Source: Patescibacteria group bacterium
GTDB taxonomy: Bacteria; Patescibacteriota; Patescibacteriia; JACRDY01
DNA length: 64,000 bases
Assembly: GCA_041653535.1 (NCBI GenBank)
Contig: JBAZFH010000003.1
Location: 2,771-66,770, forward strand
Direction of reading: 5' to 3'
Shown here: piece by piece, positions 1 through 52,192 of the stretch
Position numbering within the stretch: the first letter of the stretch is position 1
Layout of the letters: the number at the start of each line of letters is the position of its first letter
Notes under the pieces: generated by a model
Databases searched by the model: none
What the model was told of the DNA's origin: nothing
Seen by the model: only the letters and a program-made list of their open reading frames with translations
Translations under genes and position numbers: made by a program

Positions 1-825
1 TGCGGTGACGATGTTTATTGTTTGCCGCAAGATAGTGAGATTGAAGTTAATATCAAATCAGCCACCCTTTCACCTAATCCGCCAACCGCTGCTTACGACG
101 GCAGTTACGACGGCGTAACCGATTTGGCGGCAAATTCTTTTAACGGCAACGGTTTGGAGGGGGGTGTTTGTGAAATAAAGTCTTGCGTTTTTGTCGCGCC
201 AAAAGTGAACGGTTGTGATTGCACTATCGGACCGGTAGAAGATAATTATTTTTGGTATTTTAAAACTAACAACAAAATCATTCTTGATCCTCCGTATATT
301 ACCAATATCGATCCGGGTATTTTGTTTAGTGACGTTGCCCCGGATAAAAGAGTGTCGGTTGTTTTTCAACGGTTGTTAATGGGTCGTAGTCTTAATTCTT
401 CCAATATTGCCATTGCGACAAATAATAAGGTGACTTTTAACGGTAGTATTTTAAACGAAAATCTGCCGTTTTGGGTTGGCTTTAGTAATTTAGACAACGC
501 TTCTGATTCTGACAGTGTTCCTGATAACCAGAGTCAGGTATTGATTGATCACGATGATTTTTTGGAAAGCAAAATCGGGGAAAGTCGTTATGATTACTCT
601 TTGCATCTTTCCGCTGGGATAAAAGATATTTATCAAAACTGTTATTATCCGGCCGGCGCCAGTACGGAAGTGAGTGGCGGTTGTAATTATCCTTATCAGT
701 CAGCCGATAAAAACACACCTTCTTGCTGTAACGACATTTTGTATAATACGGCTGACGGCGAAAGTGATGAGTGTCCCAAGCCTTTATGGATTGAATGGCC
801 GGCTTCAGCATCGGCAACGCCATAA
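1..825 (+). CDS. 3' portion of a large secreted cysteine-rich surface protein (gene starts upstream of the window)
   Basis: The frame is open from nt 1 (CGDDVYCLPQ...) with no upstream stop, so the track's 'start' at 22 is an artefact. The C-terminal region is rich in Cys/Gly/Asn/Asp, like the downstream giant protein. Stop at 823-825. Confidence 0.5.
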   Translation, partial: CGDDVYCLPQDSEIEVNIKSATLSPNPPTAAYDGSYDGVTDLAANSFNGNGLEGGVCEIKSCVFVAPKVNGCDCTIGPVEDNYFWYFKTNNKIILDPPYITNIDPGILFSDVAPDKRVSVVFQRLLMGRSLNSSNIAIATNNKVTFNGSILNENLPFWVGFSNLDNASDSDSVPDNQSQVLIDHDDFLESKIGESRYDYSLHLSAGIKDIYQNCYYPAGASTEVSGGCNYPYQSADKNTPSCCNDILYNTADGESDECPKPLWIEWPASASATP

Positions 826-851
826 TAGCTGGTAATATAATTTTAATAAAA

Positions 852-3800
852 ATGAAAAAGACAGAAAGGTATAAAAAGATAATATTTACCGCCAGCATCG
901 TTTTGGCGTTGCTAGTGAGTTTGTTTTGGATTAATTCGATCAATGCGGCTAACAGTAATGATTTTGGTTTGAACCAGGTAGGGCAGGTAGTCAATCTTCC
1001 GACAGCTGATATTCGAGTGACGGTAGCCAATATTATCCGTTATGCTTTAGGATTTTTGGGTATTATTGCCGTCGGTATTTGTTTATATGCCGGTTTTTTG
1101 TGGATGACGTCGGCCGGCGAAGCGGAAAAAATAGAAAAAGCAAAAAGAATTTTAATTGAAGGCGTAATCGGTTTGTTGATTATTGTTTTAGCTTTTGCCA
1201 TTGTCAGTTTTGTTGTTTCCAAACTTTTAGAAGCTACCGGTACAGGAACGGAACCGGATAAAACTTGTTCGACGGAAAATTCCGGCGAAGTCAATGGCTG
1301 CTGGGTTTGTCAATCGTCTTCTTGGACTTACGACAGCAGTATCGCTGGTTGCGGTCGGACTGATGATTTTTGGGTTACCGACATTAAACCAAGAGAAAAT
1401 GCCGTTGGACCAAAAGATACTGTCGTTAGAATTTATTTTAATAAACAAGTTAATTTTGATTCTATAGATTTGGACGATGGCGATATCACTATCTCTAAAA
1501 TCGGCGAAATTGATCCAACGACCAAGGAAGTGACCACTACTTATTCTTCGCCACTAGCGGTTGCCGGAACAATACAGTTTAAATCCGGTGATAAAACAGT
1601 GGTGGAATTTCGTCCTAACGATTTGTGTGACGCTGCTTGCAGTGAAACTTCTGATAAAAAATGTAAAAAATGTTTTAGCCCCTGGGGTTTATATCAGGTT
1701 AATGTCAGGCAGGGATCGATTCAAGATGCCATAAAGGGTAAGTCAAACCAATGCGGTGTGGTTATTGATCATTGCACGAGAAAATTCAAAATAAATGATG
1801 TGATGGATGAGGAGTCACCGAAGGTTAGTATTACTTCTCTGGAACCATCACAAGGCAGGTATGTGCCGGAAAATTATGCGGTCGAAGTCAGGATTTCTGC
1901 CAAGGATAATTACGAAATTTCCGATGTTCAACTTTATATAGACGACATGAATACGCCGGTAGCAACGTTAACTAGTGAACCGTATGTTTATACTTGGCAA
2001 ACTCCGGATGGTTTGGGGTTAAAACATACGTTATTGGCTAAAGCAAGTGATACCGACGATAATCCTGCCGGAGTTTCGGCGGAGCGAGAAGCGATTGTTC
2101 GCGCTTGGCATTGTTTTAATAATCAGAAAGACACTTTTTCTTCTTCGCCGGAAAAAAACGAGTTTGAAATTGATTGCGGCGGAACCGAATGCGGTGCTTG
2201 TGTTGGTGCCGATTGCGATGCGGCTGATAAGGATACTACCACTTGTAAAACTCCGACCAACGACGTTTGTTGGACTAATTATTGCGCGCCGGCTGATTGC
2301 AAATGCGAAGGTTGGCCGGAAATTCAGACAGTAGAGCCAGGTAGAGCGCCAAAAGGAAATTTTGTTACTATTAGAGGAAGGTTTTTTGGTAAGACGTCGG
2401 GACAGGTGGTGTTTTTGGGCGGGGCAGGAGAGGCTGATGATAAGATCGGTATTAAGCCGTCGCAGATTAACAACCAGTGCGATGACGAAAGTTGCTGGAC
2501 AGATACTCAGGTGATTGTAGTGTTGCCAGACGGCGCTGTCAGCGGTCCGATAAAAATTATTACCACTGAGAATAAAGAAGATGCTACTAATGATAATCAC
2601 GGTTCTCAGTTGCTTGATTTTGATGTTTGTACCACTAGCAACGGTAATTGTTATGATTATCCCGGAATTTGTAAATTGAACCCGGCGCAAGGAGCGGCGG
2701 ATGCTTTGTTTAAAATTTACGGAATCAACTTTGGTACTACTCAAGGTAGCGCTCTGGTAAAATTCGGTGGCAAATACAGCGCGGTGATTAATTCTTGGGC
2801 AGATACCGGCAAAGAAGCAGAAGCGCGCGTGCCTAATATTCAAAGCGGGCGTCCGACGGTTACTATCGAACGCGGCGATATAAAGAGCAATCCTTTTGAA
2901 TTTTTAGTAAAATCAAGTCCTTTAGCTAATCCGATTATTTCAGATGTGCAGCCAAAAAGCGGTGGTTTTGGTCAATATGTTACTATTACCGGTCAAAATT
3001 TTGGCAGAGCCGGTGTAGTAGAGTTTATAAATAAAAACGATACCAGTAAAAAATTTCCAGCTGATTTAAACTTCCCTCAGCAGTGTCAGGATAAAATTTG
3101 GAATAATAATCAAGTAATAGTAAAAGTGCCAGATACCGGCAGTGCATTACTTGGTGATTATTTTATCGTTATTAGTCGTTCTTCCGACAATGCTTCTTCG
3201 GCAGCAGCTGATTTTATCATTAATACCGATACACCCACTCCGGGAATTTGTTTGCTCAAACCAGATAACGGTCCGGAAGCAACCCCTGTTTATGTTTTCG
3301 GCGACAGCATGGGGTCACAGAACGGCAGTGTTAATTTTTGGCAAGCAACAGTGACCGCGCCGATTATTTCTTGGAGCGAAGTGGTAAAAGTTCAGGTGCC
3401 GAAAAATACTAAAACCGGTCCGGTGGTGTTAGTTAGTGCACAGGGTAAATCCAGTAATCCTTTGAATTTCTCCGTCGGTTCTTGCCGCGCGGATGATGAT
3501 TGTACTGGTAAGCCGACGGCTGGCGAGTGTGACCAAGATCAGGAACTCGGCGTTTCACCAAAGACCAATTGTTGGGTTTGTAATAAAAGTGTTGCCACGG
3601 GGAATTATTATTGGGAATGGAGCGATACATCCTGTGGCGTTATCGACCAGTGTTGTCCTTCAGGCGTTTGTCAAACCAAAGGTACTTGTGTGGGGATCGG
3701 CGTGCTTTCTTCTTACGCTTGGGCTTTTTCTACCGGAGAGATTCCCCGCTATCCGAAAGTAGTTGAAGAATGTAATCGCGATGAAACTTGTCCGGAGGGA

Positions 3801-6800
3801 GCAAATACCCCCAGCCCCAGTCCTTGGACTCCTCGATGGGATATTAATCGCGGTTTTGATCTAGCTTGTCCCAATTCGGTTATTACTGCTCGATTTAATA
3901 TGGATATGAACCCGGATGATCTCGAAGATGTTAATAATTATAATTTTGAAAAATGCGGATATCAGACCGACGTTAATGGCGACGGTAAAGACGATCATGA
4001 TCCGTGTGTTTGCAGTCCAACGGCAAACTGCGCTTGTATTAACGGCGGCAATACCAACTGTAATCAAAAAATTAATATTACGGCTGATAATTTAATTACT
4101 TTCAACGACGGTTTTATTGTTAATTTTGCCGGAGTTGGCTTGCAGCCGGACAGCTGGTATCGCATGGCTTTACGCAAGGGGGATGCTTTGCCGGGCACAA
4201 CCGGTTTTCATTCCGCCACCGCACAAGGAGGATATCAGTTATTGGCGGATTATATCTGGCAGTTTAAAACTCGCGTTGACAGCGCTAAATGTAAAATTGG
4301 CTGCCCGACAGTGGTGCCGGTTTCTTATACTGCTAATCGTTTGGCAAAGCTTTATTTAAACTGGGATAATCCTGCTTTCCCGCGTAATCCGGTCTATCAC
4401 ACTGCCCAGGCTTCGGCGGAAAATAATCCATGTAATTTGATTGATACTTATGACTATCAGTGGTCCTGGAAGGCTACTGAAGCGGACGGTGCGAATACCA
4501 ATAAAGCCGCTTTGTACCAGATACCAAGTAATGGCTGTAGCGATAGTCGCGATAATGACAATGACGGAAAAAAAGATTATAAAGCCGGCTGTACCGTTGA
4601 CAGCGTTGATTGTGATTATAAATGCGTTTCTTCCTATGATCGATCAGAAGAGGCGGGCGAGCAATTAGTTGCTTATTTTGGCAATCTGCGTCATGCCGAA
4701 GCAATCAAGCCTACTGGTGGAAACACTTATTCTTGCGATTGTGATATTGCTCCACAATGTTCGGATAGCCTAGAAAATGACGGTGATAATAAAGTTGATT
4801 ATCCGGCTGATACGGAATGCGATACGCCTGGTGATTATAGTGAATTACTTTCTGGGTTGCAGACTCGCTCCGACGTTATTGTTGTTGCGCAAAAAGGCGT
4901 AATCACAAATTCTTCGGAAGAATGTCAGCTTTATTGTAAGGGTTTATCTAATAATACCTGGTCTTGGTATAAAACCGGTGGTTATCAAATAGCCGGTGAT
5001 CCGGTTTTAATCAGAGCGCAGGAGCTGTCTTCCGGCAAAGAAGGAAGAGCTAATTTGTTTATTAATCTGGAAGACCCTAAGGTTATTGCTAAATGGCCGG
5101 ATTGTTCACAGGCTTGTGTGAATAGTCAGGTTGGTGCTGCTTTTAATGTACCGATGGCAGAAAATACCTTGGTTGATGCTAAAAATGTCATGCTTTTTTC
5201 TTGCGGTGCCGACCTGGAATGTAAGAAAGAAAATATGTCTTCGGTCCCGATTGAAAATATTGATCCGGATTTAAGTATCGATTATCGTTACAGTGAAAGC
5301 GTTGATGACGGTCTTTATAATTCCGAGCTGACTTTTTATCCTCGCAGCACTACCCCGGGTGATTATAACGGCGGAAAACTTTTGCCAAATACTTATTATC
5401 GCGTGATACTCGGCAGTCCCGATAACGATCCGATACAAAACATCGATGGATTAAAATTGATCGGTTTAAATTACGATAATTATGCCGCTGACAATGTTCC
5501 GGATAGTTATAGCTGGATATTTAGCACCAAAAATGACTATAATTTATGTTCAGTTGATCATGTATCGGTTACTCCTAACAAGGCTTTTTTAAGCGCTATA
5601 CCGGCGTATCAATCTTATTTTAGTCAGGCATTTGGTCGGTCTGACGACTGTAGTCCTTTTGGTCAAAAACTAAACAACAGTTTTTATAGTTGGAAATGGG
5701 AGTCGGAAAAACCGACAGTTGCCCAAACCATTGGTTATAGCGTTGGTTGCGGTAATGGTATTATTGACCGCGGCGAAAATTGTGATGACGGGGTTTATCC
5801 TCCGGTTTCCGGCGACGGTTGTTCAAATAAATGTTTACGAGAGGGTAGTAGCTATTCTGTTTTCGGCTTATGTGGTAACGGGGTGGTGGAAAGCTGGGAA
5901 CAATGCGATTACGGGGTAAAAATCGGTAATCCTGCTTGGACGGAAAATAATTGTAATTCAGCGACTTGTCTATTAAATACGACCAGCAGACCGGCGGGTT
6001 CTTGCCGCGATGGCGTAATTCAGTCTTGGGAAAGCTGCGATTACGGTCCATTGATCACCGATTATTATACCGATCAAGAAGATAACCATGTTTATAATAA
6101 TTACGAAGTAAATAGTTGTAATGCCAATACTTGTTTAAATACTGGCAATACAAATCAAGGTTTGGCGGTTTGTGGTAACGGCAGGCTAGAAGGCGGGGAG
6201 GCTTGTGATGTTGTTGATGAACCAAATAATAACAACACAGACGGTTGTGCTGACAATTGTGTCAGTTCCGGTTCTGTTGATGGACGGTCTTTGTGCGGTG
6301 ATGGTCAGGTAGGTACTGGAGAAGAATGTGAATTATGTTGGAATGATGATAAAAGCGTGTTTTCTGTTATTAGAAACGGTAGTTGTTCCGCTAATAGTCT
6401 TTATGGTCATGGTGATATCGATTCCGGCACTCCAAGCTTTGCTGGTAAGACTAAAGATCCGGCGTCGGCTGAAGCCGGATGTCAGCGTGCCGGAGCGGAT
6501 AAGGTTTCTTGTGTAATTTTAAATTCAAGCGGTGGATATAAATACGATAGAAATCGTATTGGCAATTGGTGGAAATCCTCTTGCCAAAACGGTATCGTCG
6601 ACCGCGGTGAAGAATGTGACCTTGGATCGATAGTGGAAAATTATTATGGCGGTCAGAATAATTATGAAGTCAATAATTGCAATCCGACAAATTGTTTATA
6701 TAACGGTAGTAGCGAAGCAACGCCGGATTTATTAAATCGCAAGGCTTATCAGCTAGCACAATCGGTTGGAGAGGGTCGGGCTAATATCACTGCCTTTACT

Positions 6801-43794: not shown

Positions 43795-43802
43795 CGTTGT
43801 TT

Positions 43803-43860
43803 GGGTGCTTAGCTCAGTGGTAGAGCGGGCCGATTTATCGGCCGCGTCGAGAGTCTCCGC
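43803..43860 (+). pseudogene. degenerate tRNA copy (5' 25 nt identical to tRNA-Lys; 6-nt 'anticodon' loop; T-arm destroyed; no 3' acceptor strand)
   Basis: gggtgcttagctcagtggtagagcg is identical to the 5' part of the tRNA at 44153. The compensated stem ggccg/cggcc carries the loop atttat, gcgtcgagag is shared, and what follows does not fold as a T-arm. Confidence 0.6.
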
Positions 43861-43878
43861 CTCGGCTTTCGCCGTAGG
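43844..43878 (+). repeat. copy A of a ~34-nt direct repeat (gcgtYgagaRtYtccgYctMggcttt(c)gccgta) flanking the GIY-YIG/tRNA-Lys unit
   Basis: About 82% identical to copy B, with one indel; it begins with the variable-loop/T-stem sequence of tRNA-Lys. Confidence 0.5.
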
Positions 43879-43900
43879 CGAAATAGGCGATTTTCTAGGT

Positions 43901-44143
43901 ATGTATTTTATTTATATATTGAAAAGTTTGAAAGATTATGGTTATTATGTCGGTAGCACGGCAAATTTGGAAGAAAGACTTAAAAGACATAATCAAGGTC
44001 GTTCAGCGGCTACTAAAAGCAGGAGACCGTGGGAGTTGGTTTATTCTAAAAGGTTTAAAAGTAAAAACGAGGCAATAAAATTAGAGTATTATATCAAGAA
44101 GCAAAAAAGCAGTAAGTTTATAAAAGAGTTTATTAAAAAATAA
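43901..44143 (+). CDS. small GIY-YIG nuclease-domain protein (COG2827/URI-type)
   Basis: MYFIYILKS..DYGYYVGSTANLEERLKRHNQG...RPWELVY...NEAIKLEYYIKK is the canonical GIY-(x10)-YVG...R...H..G...E core. The track ORF's 5' extension (43805) is read across the tRNA-like sequence and is rejected. Confidence 0.7.
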   Translation: MYFIYILKSLKDYGYYVGSTANLEERLKRHNQGRSAATKSRRPWELVYSKRFKSKNEAIKLEYYIKKQKSSKFIKEFIKK

Positions 44144-44152
44144 TATTGTCGT

Positions 44153-44224
44153 GGGTGCTTAGCTCAGTGGTAGAGCGCCAGCCTTTTAAGCTGGGCGTCG
44201 AGAGTTCGATCCTCTCAGCACCCA
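44153..44224 (+). tRNA. tRNA-Lys (anticodon UUU)
   Basis: Cloverleaf: gggtgct/agcaccc acceptor; gctc-agtggta-gagc D-arm; ccagc-CTTTTAA-gctgg anticodon arm; gagag-ttcgatc-ctctc T-arm; discriminator A. CCA is not encoded. Confidence 0.9.
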
Positions 44225-44279
44225 TTTTTTATTTGTTTAAATCTAAGTTAAGGCAGTGGGGCGGATGGATTTTTCGGTA

Positions 44280-48153: not shown

Positions 48154-49206
48154 ATGATCAAAAAGAAAAATGTCCTTAAAAAAGAGGATATGAAGTCGAT
48201 AAAATCCGCAGAAACAAAAGATGAGGAGATGACTAGTCCCGAGGTTGTCGGCAGCGACAATGATTTTTCGTTTCGTGGGTTATTTCGTAAGAAATTTATT
48301 ATCGGTTTGGTTATTGGTTTAGTGGTGGCTTTGGCGATTGTTGTGGCGGCAGCGTCTTTTATGTTCTATGGCAATCCGGGAAAATATTTGGTTTTAGAAA
48401 AAATTGCCGCAGCGTTTCATTTTCCTATGGCTAAGGCTAATGGACAATATATCGCTTATTCTGATTTTTATAATGAGTATAAGATTTTAAATCACTATTA
48501 CAATCAACAAGTGAAGCTTGGAGCTATTTCCGCCAATCAAGTGCCACCAGATAGTCAAAATCGTAAAGATCTTGAAGAGCAGTTAATAAGTAAAACATTA
48601 ATAGAACAACTAGCTCGTAAATATAAAATAGTTGTTACTGATATAGAAATCGAGCAGAGTTGGACAAAAGATGTATTACCTTACTTTGATAATGATGAGA
48701 AGAAGGCAGAAGAAAAAATCAAAGAAGATTATAATATGTCTGTCAGCGAGTTTAAGGAAAAAATGATCAGAGAAAATTTGCTTTATAATAAGGTTGATGA
48801 AATAGCGGAGATGGATCCCGATGTTCAGGAATTTACCCGTGTTCGAGCCGAGGGTGTTTTGAAAGAGGTTAAAGATGGTAAGCAGGATTTTGCTGCTTTA
48901 GTCAAACAGTACAGCGACGACACCGGCACTAAGGCAAACGGTGGTGATTTGGACTGGTTCGGTAAGGGTCAGATGGTTTCCGGTTTTGAAGAAGCCGCGT
49001 TTAAATTGCAGCCAGGTGAAATTAGCGATTTAGTAAAAACCATTTACGGATACCATATTATTAAGGTGGCTGAAAAAAAAGGTTCTGCTGAAGGCGGTGA
49101 TGAACAAATAAAAGCCAGTCATATTTTGATTAAGCCAAGTCTGGCGACATATCTTCAGGAGGTTAAGGATTCAGATAGTATTAAGCGATATATTGATTTC
49201 AAATAA
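48154..49206 (+). CDS. membrane-anchored parvulin-type peptidyl-prolyl isomerase (PrsA/SurA-like)
   Basis: TM anchor, then the PpiC domain (DDTGTKANGGDLDWFGKGQMVSGFEEAAFKL...GYHIIKV) and ASHILIKP. Confidence 0.85.
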   Translation: MIKKKNVLKKEDMKSIKSAETKDEEMTSPEVVGSDNDFSFRGLFRKKFIIGLVIGLVVALAIVVAAASFMFYGNPGKYLVLEKIAAAFHFPMAKANGQYIAYSDFYNEYKILNHYYNQQVKLGAISANQVPPDSQNRKDLEEQLISKTLIEQLARKYKIVVTDIEIEQSWTKDVLPYFDNDEKKAEEKIKEDYNMSVSEFKEKMIRENLLYNKVDEIAEMDPDVQEFTRVRAEGVLKEVKDGKQDFAALVKQYSDDTGTKANGGDLDWFGKGQMVSGFEEAAFKLQPGEISDLVKTIYGYHIIKVAEKKGSAEGGDEQIKASHILIKPSLATYLQEVKDSDSIKRYIDFK

Positions 49207-49262
49207 AAATTGTTAATACTAAAAAAGCCGCCTCATTCTATCGAGACGGCTTTCACTGGTTT

Positions 49263-49321
49263 TGGAGTCACCTATTGGGTTTGAACCCACGACTTGCAGT
49301 TTATCCGTCTGCCAAAGCCTC
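49263..49321 (-). pseudogene. 59-nt tRNA 3' remnant (anticodon-arm-like hairpin, T-arm, acceptor 3' strand, discriminator and encoded CCA) abutting tRNA-Thr; no 5' acceptor/D-arm
   Basis: The minus-strand sequence is gaggctttggcagacggataaactgcaagtcGTGGGttcaaacCCAATaggtgacTCCA. Its T-loop TTCAAAC is canonical, but the anticodon-region loop is non-canonical (G at position 33 or a 9-nt loop). Confidence 0.5.
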
Positions 49322-49394
49322 AGCCCACGGCCGGAGTTGAACCGGCAACCTACGGTTTACGATACCGTTGCTCTGCCAATTGAGCTACATGGGC
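49322..49394 (-). tRNA. tRNA-Thr (anticodon CGU)
   Basis: Minus-strand cloverleaf: gcccatg/cgtgggc acceptor (one G-U); gctc..gagc D-arm; acggt-ATCGTAA-accgt anticodon arm; gccgg-ttcaact-ccggc T-arm. Confidence 0.85.
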
Positions 49395-49467
49395 TTAGGT
49401 TATGGCGGTCGGGCGATACTGTTACTTTGTCAATCGAATTAAGGTGACCGGCAAAAATAGTGAATTA

Positions 49468-49542
49468 TGGAGCGGGAGACGGGGATCGAACCCGCGACCT
49501 TCTGCTTGGGAAGCAGACATTCTACCACTGAACTACTCCCGC
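49468..49542 (-). tRNA. tRNA-Gly (anticodon CCC), CCA encoded
   Basis: Minus strand: gcgggag/ctcccgc acceptor; gttc-agtggta-gaat D-arm; tctgc-TTCCCAA-gcaga anticodon arm; gcggg-ttcgatc-cccgt T-arm; discriminator T followed by CCA. Confidence 0.85.
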
Positions 49543-49593
49543 GAACAATAGATTGCACCCGTGAAATAGGTGCCTAAATTATATAGATTTAAG

Positions 49594-50385
49594 ATGAAAA
49601 AATCAATATCACTTATATTATTAATGATTGTTTTGCTTTGCGGTTTTCCGGGGAAAATATATAGCCAGGACGCATCGGTCGATGTTAGCGAAGACGGAAT
49701 AAGTATCTATTCATCTATAATTGATCCGATCTTAAAGAAAAGACAACACGTCGTCGCTTTGCCTGACGATGGGTTTTATCTAGAAATTAGCAACAGTGCT
49801 TTTAAAAAATCCACCGAGATTGTGATAAAAAAGCGAAAAGAAATTTTGTATCAGTTGCCGGAAAATTTTGTAGCACTAAGCGATTTTTGGGAGTATGATA
49901 TAGTTGGAAAGAATGAATATGACAAAAAGACAGCTATTTTATTTCGTCTTGATAGTGCCAAAAGTGACTATTTGAAAAAAATTATATTTTGGAACGGAAA
50001 AAGCTGGCAGGAATTGCCGAGTAAGATCGTAGATATAGAATCGGGAAAGGTGGAGGCAAAGGCGTATTTACCTTTCCTTCGTTTTTTGGTCGTAGCCGAC
50101 ATGACAAAAATATCTCAGGGACAAGCGAGTTGGTATCGTTATAAAAGTTGTTTATGCGCGGCTTCACCTGATTATCCTAAAGGAAGTATTTTGCGGGTAA
50201 CTAATATTGAAAATAGTAAATCGGTGGAAGTAAAAGTAAACGATTTTGGTCCGGACAGATCCGTGCATCCAGACAGGGTGATCGATCTTGATCTGGTGGC
50301 TTTTGGGAAAATAGCAAAAAAAGGAGCTGGGCTGGTTAGCGTTTTGGTTGAACCGATAAAGGTTAATACAAAAAATAAATTATGA
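49594..50385 (+). CDS. rlpA: secreted RlpA-like double-psi beta-barrel (lytic transglycosylase-like) protein
   Basis: Signal peptide (MKKSISLILLMIVLLCGF) and a C-terminal DPBB (GQASWYRYKS...RVTNIENSKSVEVKVNDFGPD...VIDLDLVAFGKI). Its stop overlaps the ftsE start. Confidence 0.65.
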   Translation: MKKSISLILLMIVLLCGFPGKIYSQDASVDVSEDGISIYSSIIDPILKKRQHVVALPDDGFYLEISNSAFKKSTEIVIKKRKEILYQLPENFVALSDFWEYDIVGKNEYDKKTAILFRLDSAKSDYLKKIIFWNGKSWQELPSKIVDIESGKVEAKAYLPFLRFLVVADMTKISQGQASWYRYKSCLCAASPDYPKGSILRVTNIENSKSVEVKVNDFGPDRSVHPDRVIDLDLVAFGKIAKKGAGLVSVLVEPIKVNTKNKL

Positions 50386-52040: not shown

Positions 52041-52117
52041 GTAATTATTAATTAATGCGTTGCAGGCGGGCAAACTGTAAGGTACTATTGTTGATTTGTA
52101 ATTAATAATTGTTTCGT

Positions 52118-52192
52118 TGGGGAGTCGCCAAGCGGTAAGGCACCGCCCTTTGGAGGCGGCATTCGAAGGTTCGAATCCTTCCTCCCCAGCCA
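52118..52192 (+). tRNA. tRNA-Gln (anticodon UUG), CCA encoded
   Basis: U1:A72 acceptor (tggggag/ctcccca), a 3-bp D-stem as in bacterial tRNA-Gln, ccgcc-CTTTGGA-ggcgg anticodon arm, gaagg-ttcgaat-ccttc T-arm, and G73 followed by CCA. Confidence 0.85.

Follow-up and report, generated by a model that had tools for sequence, protein, structure and literature searches.

What is a 59-nt fragment of a tRNA, complete with its CCA end, doing directly behind an intact tRNA gene? The question is raised by a 64,000-nt stretch of DNA from a Patescibacteria group bacterium (contig JBAZFH010000003.1; the whole stretch is referred to below as the window). On its minus strand, on which all coordinates of the unit are read here, a tRNA-Gly(CCC) gene and a tRNA-Thr(CGU) gene are followed by an element that starts at 49321, right after the tRNA-Thr gene ends at 49322 (a gap of 0 nt), and terminates at 49263. 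An earlier sequence-only reading had described this element as a tRNA 3' remnant; the end that it gave (...GTGGG TTCAAAC CCAAT AGGTGAC T CCA, down to 49263) is confirmed, and so is its view that the two complete genes are canonical (Rfam 71.2 and 66.8 bits, respectively). Based on the evidence presented here, we are highly confident that the element is composite, made of the 3' arm of an insert and the 3' part of an outer tRNA-Thr(CGU) gene, and that the locus belongs to a family of cassettes. It is also probable that the outer gene was cut after nucleotide 35 by a 110-nt cassette, that the copy in the window is a decaying outer gene, and that it represents a recurrent tRNA-in-tRNA family of Patescibacteria-like genomes.

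The 59-nt element and its upstream counterpart

A 5' acceptor strand and a D-arm had been reported missing from the element; both are supplied upstream of the inner tRNA, by a 35-nt stretch at 49448..49414. This outer 5' part reads GTCACCT TA ATTC GATTGACA AAGT A ACAGT ATCG and spans the acceptor 5' strand, positions 8-9, the D arm, position 26, the 5' strand of the anticodon stem and loop positions 32-35. The perfect acceptor complement GTCACCT, which the sequence-only reading had correctly located at 49448..49442, pairs at 7/7 positions with 49273..49267, and a fixed 7-mer is expected by chance in a 72-nt spacer with a probability of about 0.4% (estimate). The repeat finder aligned 24 nt of the same spacer with the D-arm-to-anticodon part of the inner tRNA-Thr at 79% identity, and by hand alignment the outer 5' part matches the inner gene at 23/35 positions (21/28 outside the acceptor stem). 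The upstream sequence UAAUUCGAUUGAC also resembled the D-loop region of a transfer-messenger RNA (tmRNA), a candidate that was dropped after the position-by-position fit to a tRNA-Thr 5' half; neither ARAGORN nor Rfam found a tmRNA in the region.

The outer 3' part (49263..49303, 41 nt) reads TAA ACTGC AAGTC GTGGG TTCAAAC CCAAT AGGTGAC T CCA, and thus comprises loop positions 36-38, the 3' strand of the anticodon stem, the variable loop, the T arm, the acceptor 3' strand, the discriminator and an encoded CCA. The anticodon previously assigned to the element (cgGATaa) consists mostly of the insert 3' arm GAGGCTTTGGCAGACGGA, the outer loop resuming only at TAA. The break falls after anticodon nucleotide 35, between loop positions 35 and 36: joining ...ACAGT ATCG to TAA gives the loop AUCG|UAA, in which the anticodon is split as CG|U (CGU, Thr). 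When joined in silico (...ACAGUAUCG|UAAACUGC...), the two halves form a 76-nt cloverleaf identified as tRNA-Thr(cgt), with the exact 7-nt loop AUCGUAA. Between them lies the 110-nt insert, composed of a 19-nt 5' arm (CCCGACCGCCATAACCTAA, 49395..49413; family consensus CCTGCCCGCCATAGCCTGA), the complete inner tRNA-Thr(CGU) (49322..49394, 73 nt, identified by ARAGORN and Rfam and devoid of an encoded CCA) as its cargo, and a complementary 18-nt 3' arm (GAGGCTTTGGCAGACGGA, 49304..49321; family consensus GAGGCGATGGCAGGCGGG), which makes up the first 18 nt of the 59-nt element. No complete tRNA was found in this element at normal thresholds by ARAGORN or Rfam; the tRNA-Gly and the inner tRNA-Thr are the only genes called in the region, even at E<=10. 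An identical sequence is present in a second, independent assembly from another sample (L015), and the nested locus is therefore not an assembly artefact.

Two origins had been proposed for the element. The one ranked as less likely, a split or permuted tRNA, is borne out in its first half, since the two parts do flank the tRNA-Thr and do so again in other contigs; the gene is not permuted, its order being 5' half, insert, 3' half. The other saw in the element a truncated pseudogene that recombination or the integration of a mobile genetic element had left behind. Decay is indeed visible (three stem mismatches, and detection by ARAGORN only at a relaxed threshold), but the scar of an integration is not. 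Integrases commonly target the 3' halves of tRNA genes and leave CCA-ended duplicates of 40-60 nt, and the fragment does begin near an anticodon arm, as the attachment-site remnant of an integrase-type element or island might. However, neither the fragment nor its halves occur a second time within the 64-kb window at up to 3 mismatches, and no integrase, island or foreign cargo was found near the locus, whose housekeeping neighbours stand in a conserved order; these absences remove the attachment-site reading. In addition, the 3' end of the adjacent tRNA is not duplicated in the fragment, a matching 5' half stands 121 nt upstream, and unrelated contigs show the same design, conserved arms included. 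We consider such a remnant very improbable.

A family of nested tRNA-Thr genes

A metagenome scan for a Thr-type D arm followed after 43-48 nt by CT RR GGC NN TGG NRG retrieved 15 contigs, and in 15/15 an inner tRNA-Thr and then a 3' arm follow. The window fits the scan pattern; its contig lies outside the metagenome collection. Together with two syntenic relatives, at least 17 further loci thus hold a tRNA-Thr between the same conserved GC-rich arms. In most of the 15 scan contigs the 5' arm is present and an outer tRNA-Thr is split around the cassette; the exceptions are L041, which has no recognisable outer gene, and L044, which is complex and has a different upstream flank, while L036 and L043 are cut by the end of the contig. 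The inner genes carry the anticodons CGU, UGU and GGU, and inner and outer genes share their anticodon wherever that of the outer gene is intact. The T loops of the inner tRNA-Thr(UGU) of L035 and L041, and of the outer gene of L035, read TCCGA instead of TTCGA, with a C at the near-universal U55.

The insert occupies one of three positions. In L029, L034, L042, L048, L035 and L036 it interrupts the D stem between nucleotides 23 and 24 (...GGTAGA|CCTGCC...GCGGG|GCA...); in L039, L043 and L037 it lies between nucleotides 30 and 31 (...CATC|CCCGCCTGCC...GGCGGGCAGG|CATGGTAA...); and in L046, L047, L045, L038, L030 and the window it separates positions 35 and 36 of the anticodon loop (...TTTG|CCTGCC...GCGGG|TAA...), a class that the window junction ATCG|CCCG...CGGA|TAA fits. 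As for the hosts, an L33 protein neighbouring one family locus is named Patescibacteria by NCBI. In viral contigs, neither the cassette nor the arm pattern had a match.

One of the syntenic relatives, L029 (RlpA 50% identical), shows the same nested design at the same locus, between the genes for the peptidyl-prolyl isomerase and RlpA. On its minus strand, the tRNA-Gly is followed by GCCACCG TA GCTC AGCTGGTA GA, then by CTCGCCCGCCATAGCCTGA, the inner tRNA-Thr(CGU) and AAGGCGATGGCAGGCGGG, and finally by GC A ATGCT TTCG ... TAA AGCAG AGGTC GTCGG ... TTCAAAT CCGAC CGGTGGC T CCA. Homology of its arms with the window arms is evident from their sequences. In L030, the arm-flanked inner tRNA-Thr has been kept and the outer gene is reduced to a decayed 3' relic. 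The same contig also contains a tRNA-Gly(CCC) (264..411, minus strand) lying between arms within the anticodon loop of another tRNA-Gly(CCC), after nucleotide 35, so that the cassette is not restricted to tRNA-Thr. The 5' part of this outer tRNA-Gly (GCGGATG TA GTTC AGTGGTA GAAC A TCTGC TTCC) differs from the nested gene, and its 3' part is not recognisable, the Thr cassette following directly. When GC-rich hairpins were deleted and ARAGORN rerun on all DNA examined, no convincing case of a hidden interrupted non-Thr tRNA emerged; a tRNA-Trp match obtained in L044 after hairpin deletion was rejected as an artefact of an intact gene.

The window holds another stretch of this type. Upstream of a tRNA-Gln gene (52118..52192), the sequence GCAGGCGGG CAAACTGTAAGGT at 52062..52083 on the plus strand resembles a distal 3' arm and, after it, the first bases of an outer tRNA-Thr(UGU) 3' part; the counterpart in the family is GGCAGGCGGG|TAAACTGTAGGT. 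This is probably, to judge from its sequence, the relic of a second cassette in the same genome.

The arms of the insert

A helix formed by the two arms can stack on the acceptor stem of the inner tRNA, and the minimum free energy fold of the region draws such a long-range helix around the inner tRNA, between the Gly-Thr spacer and the 59-nt element. The window arms are identical to the family consensus at 29/37 fixed positions, where random 110-mers drawn from the window average 8.3. Pairing between the two arms is found at 12/17 positions (mean of random cases 6.4), a value reached in 0.9% of random cases; the five lost pairs include the terminal one at the junction. In the intact-arm members that were scored (L029, L030 and L040), 15/17 positions pair. 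The leader-trailer duplex amounts to -14.1 kcal/mol in the window versus -18 to -33 in other arm-bearing tRNA-Thr genes; for most ordinary tRNAs it is above -10 kcal/mol.

In an alignment of 17 cassettes (110 columns, with an arm helix of 17 positions), 13 of the 17 arm positions are paired in 13-17 members, mostly by the same pair, and two positions are conserved wobble or mismatch sites. The arms are almost without covariation, in contrast to the cargo tRNA, whose stems covary heavily. Paired cells make up 92.3% of the whole structure, and the observed values were reached by 0/500 shuffles. The distal 10-bp module of the arms exists in two forms, CCTGCCCGCC/GGCAGGCGGG and CCCGCCTGCC/GGCGGGCAGG, which are one duplex read from opposite strands, with U.G and C.A exchanged; such a strand swap is what an inversion of DNA would produce. 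Kink-turn, box C/D and hammerhead motifs were looked for by eye in the arms and rejected, their pairing registers being incompatible.

State of the outer genes and signs of selection

Exact removal of the insert, as expected for a protein-spliced intron, yields a tRNA-Thr at the default threshold of ARAGORN in eight loci (L046, L047, L045, L039, L034, L042, L029 and L035), each with the anticodon of its own inner gene; three inserts had to be removed in L029 and four in L035. In L046 the exon junction in silico reads ...ACGGUUUUG|UAAACCGU..., and the intron mode of ARAGORN identifies the outer gene as a tRNA-Thr(tgt) with a 119-nt intron, that of L039 being a tRNA-Thr(ggt) with a 110-nt intron. 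This mode also fuses tRNA-Gly and tRNA-Thr into chimeras, and its calls were therefore accepted only where they match the manual parse. Among the spliced outer genes run through ARAGORN, the window copy alone fails the default threshold and is called only at -ps85 or lower (85% of the default). Extra GC-rich hairpins of 15-115 nt are found in the D loop, T loop or anticodon arm of the outer genes of L029, L035-L038, L045 and L048; for instance, CCTGCCCGCCGGTAGGCAGG lies between T-stem and T-loop, TCCGCC-NNN-GGCGGA occurs in D loops, and L029 has such a hairpin at 2044..2063.

The window copy deserves separate consideration. Its acceptor stem is perfect over 7 bp and departs from that of the inner gene at five compensated positions, its T loop TTCAAAC is canonical, its CCA is encoded, the joined halves restore the loop AUCGUAA, and the gene sits within a transcription unit. 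Along with the family-level selection signal described below, these traits might speak for a functional outer tRNA-Thr(CGU), the insert being removed and the halves ligated so that each nested gene delivers two tRNA-Thr(CGU). The remaining traits go in the opposite direction. The joined gene has three stem mismatches, C13.A22, A27.C43 and G51.A63, the last of which qualifies the T-arm that the sequence-only reading had called proper: the arm is present, but its stem is imperfect. The D loop GATTGACA lacks the GG motif, and 5/17 arm pairs are lost, including the terminal pair. The gene is 60-71% identical to other tRNA-Thr(CGU) genes, which are themselves ~69-82% identical to the inner gene of the window, and it is hence the more diverged of the two. 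With its sub-threshold score, broken stems and lost invariant bases, it has the marks of a tRNA pseudogene. On account of the three mismatches, the missing GG, the five lost arm pairs and the high divergence, the window copy is read as a relic: it is likely co-transcribed, decaying and non-functional, and we regard a working outer tRNA at this locus as unlikely.

A sign of function comes from L046 and L047, two orthologous loci that both lie upstream of rpmG. Their intergenic flanks are 49-57% identical and the third codon positions of the L33 gene 42% identical, whereas the outer exons are identical at 72/73 positions; the arms together with a 9-nt relic match at 44/46 positions, and the inner tRNAs at 68/73, two compensated stem pairs included. 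The acceptor and T stems of both outer genes are unlike those of the inner genes that they enclose, and conversion from the inner gene thus cannot explain the match. Had the outer gene changed at least as fast as the selected inner gene, a difference at one position or none would have a probability of ~0.04 (Poisson estimate). This conservation argues that the L046/L047 outer gene is, or recently was, a working tRNA, in which case the insert must be removed from the RNA. The 9-nt relic stands between the 5' arm and the inner tRNA on the minus strand (GCCGATGAA at L046 ~2986..2994; GCCGATTAA at L047 ~542..550); its resemblance to the first 7 nt of another Thr acceptor stem suggests that the cargo has been replaced. 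Moreover, the inner gene of L041 resembles the outer gene of L046, the inner gene of L036 resembles the outer gene of L039, and hardly any difference separates the inner from the outer gene in L045 and L038. These resemblances speak for a dynamic system in which inner and outer genes probably recombine.

Possible mobility at the DNA level and weighing of the readings

The nested family may not need any splicing at all. Arm-like ends occur in L046 on a 105-nt element with an AT-rich interior, situated between two open reading frames (6288..6392), and L042 has a 30-nt hairpin (5106..5135) flanked by a 7-bp direct repeat, CAATTTT, which is a possible target-site duplication. These related contigs therefore contain sequences with the features of miniature inverted-repeat transposable elements (MITE) or repetitive extragenic palindromes (REP), namely terminal inverted repeats, non-coding content and intergenic copies; in the window itself, the arm motif is marginally enriched (11 matches vs 5.6 expected). 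The cassette could accordingly be purely selfish palindrome-ended DNA that brings a replacement tRNA of the same identity, the outer genes being dead on arrival and eroding, nothing being spliced, and the window representing an old insertion. The conservation of the arms in sequence without covariation next to a freely covarying cargo, the distal module in both orientations (a strand-flip signature), the three insertion positions, some of them in stems, the many eroded outer genes, the arm-flanked tRNAs without an outer gene (L041, L040), the accumulation of extra GC-rich hairpins in outer genes, and the lack of such a hairpin insert in non-Thr tRNAs of the DNA examined are all in line with this scenario. 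It is harder to reconcile with L046 and L047, in which the outer exons are nearly invariant between saturated flanks and synonymous sites, and with the outer genes of L029 and L035, which are still canonical once three or four inserts are cut out. Furthermore, no target duplication was seen at any tRNA insertion site examined or at L046 6288, and no transposase or other mobility gene was found linked to the cassettes. We view a purely selfish origin as a serious candidate, although one that we would not favour outright.

Several results weigh against a nested gene with an RNA-level insert. The arm-like GC-rich inverted repeats in intergenic DNA devoid of tRNA point to mobility of the DNA and not to an RNA intron. 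The outer genes are eroded or partly deleted in the window, L030, L037, L038, L040, L041 and L048. The selection argument comes from a single orthologous pair, and the same pattern would be seen if the entire cassette had been transferred recently. A covariance model of arms and inner tRNA, built without the window, matches 49304..49413 over its full length with 104.5 bits, but it fails to separate arm-bearing from arm-less tRNA-Thr genes (69-102 bits) and is therefore uninformative on the arms. In the window, the cofold z-score of the two halves is just -2.5, and random 35-mers joined to the true 3' part were called as a tRNA in 2.7% of trials, the false-call rate of ARAGORN at the relaxed threshold being 1.6-2.7% in the joined construct.

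These false calls, and the decayed second copies found downstream of tRNA-Thr in the relatives L026 and L031, would also suit a mere chance resemblance or a decayed tandem duplication of tRNA-Thr. A tandem duplication, however, would leave copies side by side and not two halves on either side of a full gene; the acceptor stem that the halves form is compensated and unlike that of the inner gene, and the arms agree with the family consensus as described above. This explanation is the least credible of those considered here, even more so than an attachment site.

For the preferred reading of a tRNA-Thr gene interrupted by a tRNA-carrying cassette, the fate of the transcript can be sketched. RNase P and RNase Z would release the tRNA-Gly and the inner tRNA-Thr, the latter then gaining its CCA, and the arm helix, together with the 7-bp acceptor stem, would keep the leftover outer halves associated. 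In the window, where the outer tRNA is poor and the arms are eroded, these halves would most likely be a co-transcribed relic, the tRNA-Thr(CGU) function being presumably carried by the inner gene. Elsewhere in the family, well-preserved outer genes, apparently under purifying selection in at least one lineage, would imply an RNA-level removal of the insert in that lineage, by a pathway that would use no group I ribozyme and no bulge-helix-bulge cut.

At the scale of the family, the sequence evidence thus appears divided between a spliced intervening sequence hosting a tRNA and a selfish palindromic insertion, two readings that are not mutually exclusive. A bolder reading, held as less likely than not, is that Patescibacteria harbour a new kind of non-ribozyme insert in tRNA genes, helical and rich in GC, in some cases with a complete second tRNA inside, and that such inserts are mobile as DNA and exactly removed from RNA by an endonuclease/ligase pathway of a non-bulge-helix-bulge type, so that a nested gene could give two tRNAs; the window would then show an eroding example. 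If the splicing reading is true, bacteria possess an unrecognised tRNA splicing pathway; if the selfish reading is true, the cassettes are a new type of element that offsets its own damage by supplying a replacement tRNA. In the literature searched, we found no description of a recurrent bacterial tRNA inside a tRNA of the same identity between conserved arms. As standard tRNA finders see the inner gene only, tRNA counts and claims of 'missing isoacceptors' for these small genomes can be wrong.

Transcription unit and genomic neighbourhood

The order on the minus strand is a promoter-like site, the tRNA-Gly, a 73-nt spacer, the tRNA-Thr, the 59-nt element and a terminator-like hairpin. The promoter-like site (TTGATT-17-TATAAT, 49578..49606), identified by its consensus match only (10/12 positions), lies upstream of the tRNA-Gly(CCC) (49468..49542, identified by ARAGORN and Rfam RF00005), the first gene of the unit, which has an encoded CCA; it is the probable start of the Gly/nested-Thr transcription unit. 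The hairpin resembles an intrinsic terminator (49223..49254; a 13-pair stem with 6 G-C pairs, then a T run) and begins 8 nt past the CCA of the outer gene. A single promoter-like and a single terminator-like site therefore enclose the tRNA-Gly, both outer parts, the arms and the inner tRNA-Thr. The presumed start of the transcript, AGGCACCTATT (49565..49575), is complementary at 10/11 positions to the end of the outer 3' part, AATAGGTGACT (49266..49276). As a second acceptor partner, 49575..49565 was rejected, a 10/11 complement being at about chance level in 500 nt (estimate).

The flanking genes have housekeeping functions (a P-type ATPase, DivIC, a PrsA/SurA-like isomerase, RlpA, FtsE and FtsX), and their order is kept in the relatives fetched through homologues of the isomerase and RlpA. 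Identical isomerase and RlpA proteins are named by NCBI as coming from a 'Patescibacteria group bacterium' metagenome-assembled genome. The isomerase route gave four relatives, the closest of which (L016) ends inside the region, and the RlpA route was more productive; a protein scan of species-representative genomes with the flanking isomerase yielded distant domain matches only and no useful locus.

Across the orthologous tRNA clusters, whose comparison had been suggested in the sequence-only reading, the nested design is found in L029 and in part in L030, and the other relatives have uninterrupted or decayed copies or none. A tRNA-Gly and an uninterrupted tRNA-Thr(CGU) stand at the same spot in L017, L020, L023 and L031. 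L022, the relative with the most similar RlpA (55%), has no tRNA gene between isomerase and rlpA, which are separated by an 18-nt gap (2483..2501); the Gly-Thr cluster has thus been gained or lost as a block. A decayed second copy of tRNA-Thr lies downstream of the intact gene on the minus strand of L026 (~2045..2160) and L031 (~790..865). The L031 copy runs into a T tract and may now serve as a terminator. The L026 copy still ends with the arm sequence ...CCGACTATCGACT AAGGCGATGGCAG, and a near-identical stretch is present in L044.

Elsewhere in the window, a partial 5' duplicate of the tRNA-Lys(UUU) gene (44152..44225) is found upstream of the intact gene, at 43802..~43856 on the plus strand. 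The acceptor, D arm, variable loop and 5' strand of the T stem are identical in the two, and the anticodon arm differs. The duplicate is followed by a GC-rich hairpin-like sequence and a small open reading frame with a GIY-YIG nuclease domain (43805..44143, Pfam E=3e-19), and the intron mode of ARAGORN fuses the tRNA-Lys pieces into a 'tRNA-Stop(tta)' with a 334-nt intron. Judging by sequence, 43802..44225 adds to the window a second tRNA gene that is disrupted or duplicated, here with a nuclease gene.

Comparison with known systems

In bacterial tRNA genes, group I introns are the only intron type listed (PMC4090602). Like them, for example the intron of cyanobacterial tRNA-Leu(UAA), the cassette interrupts the anticodon loop. 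Group I introns are recognised by a ribozyme core, P3-P9, usually of more than 200 nt and detectable as Intron_gpI in Rfam. The non-tRNA part of the insert is only 37 nt, too small for such a core; Rfam at gathering thresholds gave tRNA matches only in the window and 7 family loci, and no intron family appeared at E<=10 in 49000..49800. The occurrence of the same insert in the D and anticodon stems (23/24 and 30/31) is also atypical of group I introns.

The cassettes share with MITE and REP sequences their GC-rich imperfect terminal inverted repeats, non-coding nature, intergenic copies, both orientations and, in one case, a 7-bp direct repeat. They differ from these elements in carrying a tRNA, in their precise insertion without target duplication into tRNA genes of the same identity, and in the selection that apparently acts on at least some of the interrupted host genes. 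The CCA-ended partial tRNA beside an intact tRNA recalls the duplications of tRNA 3' ends at attachment sites; unlike these, it comes with a complementary 5' half and with no direct repeat, integrase or island.

Protein-spliced, split and multiply interrupted tRNA genes have been described for archaea and eukaryotes (PMC4090602). The archaeal features include protein-spliced introns of 11-129 nt, split genes joined via complementary leader and trailer sequences, and a C/D RNA nested in an intron (PMC4090602), and 'transposing' tRNA introns of Thermoproteales have been summarised in a meeting report (PMC10714607). In the literature searched, which does not cover all journals, no interrupted, nested or split tRNA gene was found for Patescibacteria (the Candidate Phyla Radiation), and nothing ties the splicing endonuclease EndA or an RtcB-type ligase to this group. 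The likeness to archaeal protein-spliced introns (PMC4090602; PMC10714607) is nevertheless extensive: short helical inserts without a ribozyme, with lengths within 11-129 nt, in the anticodon loop and at non-canonical positions (here 23/24, 30/31, 35/36 and hairpins in the D and T loops), up to four inserts per gene, and near-identical inserts in different tRNA genes. The cassettes depart from these introns in their bacterial host, in the whole tRNA carried within the insert, and in the absence of a bulge-helix-bulge at the junctions inspected, where the first and last bases of the insert pair and the helix is continuous; the 35/36 class alone allows a weak alternative helix of 4 bp, rich in G.U, and the 23/24 class allows none.

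The GC-rich complementary helix beside the break, which would hold the halves together, is reminiscent of the split tRNAs of Nanoarchaeum equitans and the tri-split tRNAs of Caldivirga (PMC4090602), and the break positions (30/31, the anticodon loop, near 25/26) echo the archaeal split ones. In contrast to the split tRNAs of Nanoarchaeum, with a promoter for each half at distant loci, the halves described here are collinear, lie 110 nt apart in one transcription unit, flank another tRNA and lack a bulge-helix-bulge. Finally, the archaeal tRNA-Trp intron with its box C/D RNA (PMC4090602) also places a functional small RNA inside an insert of a tRNA gene; the cargo of the cassettes, however, is not a guide RNA but a complete tRNA, with the same identity and the same anticodon as its host.

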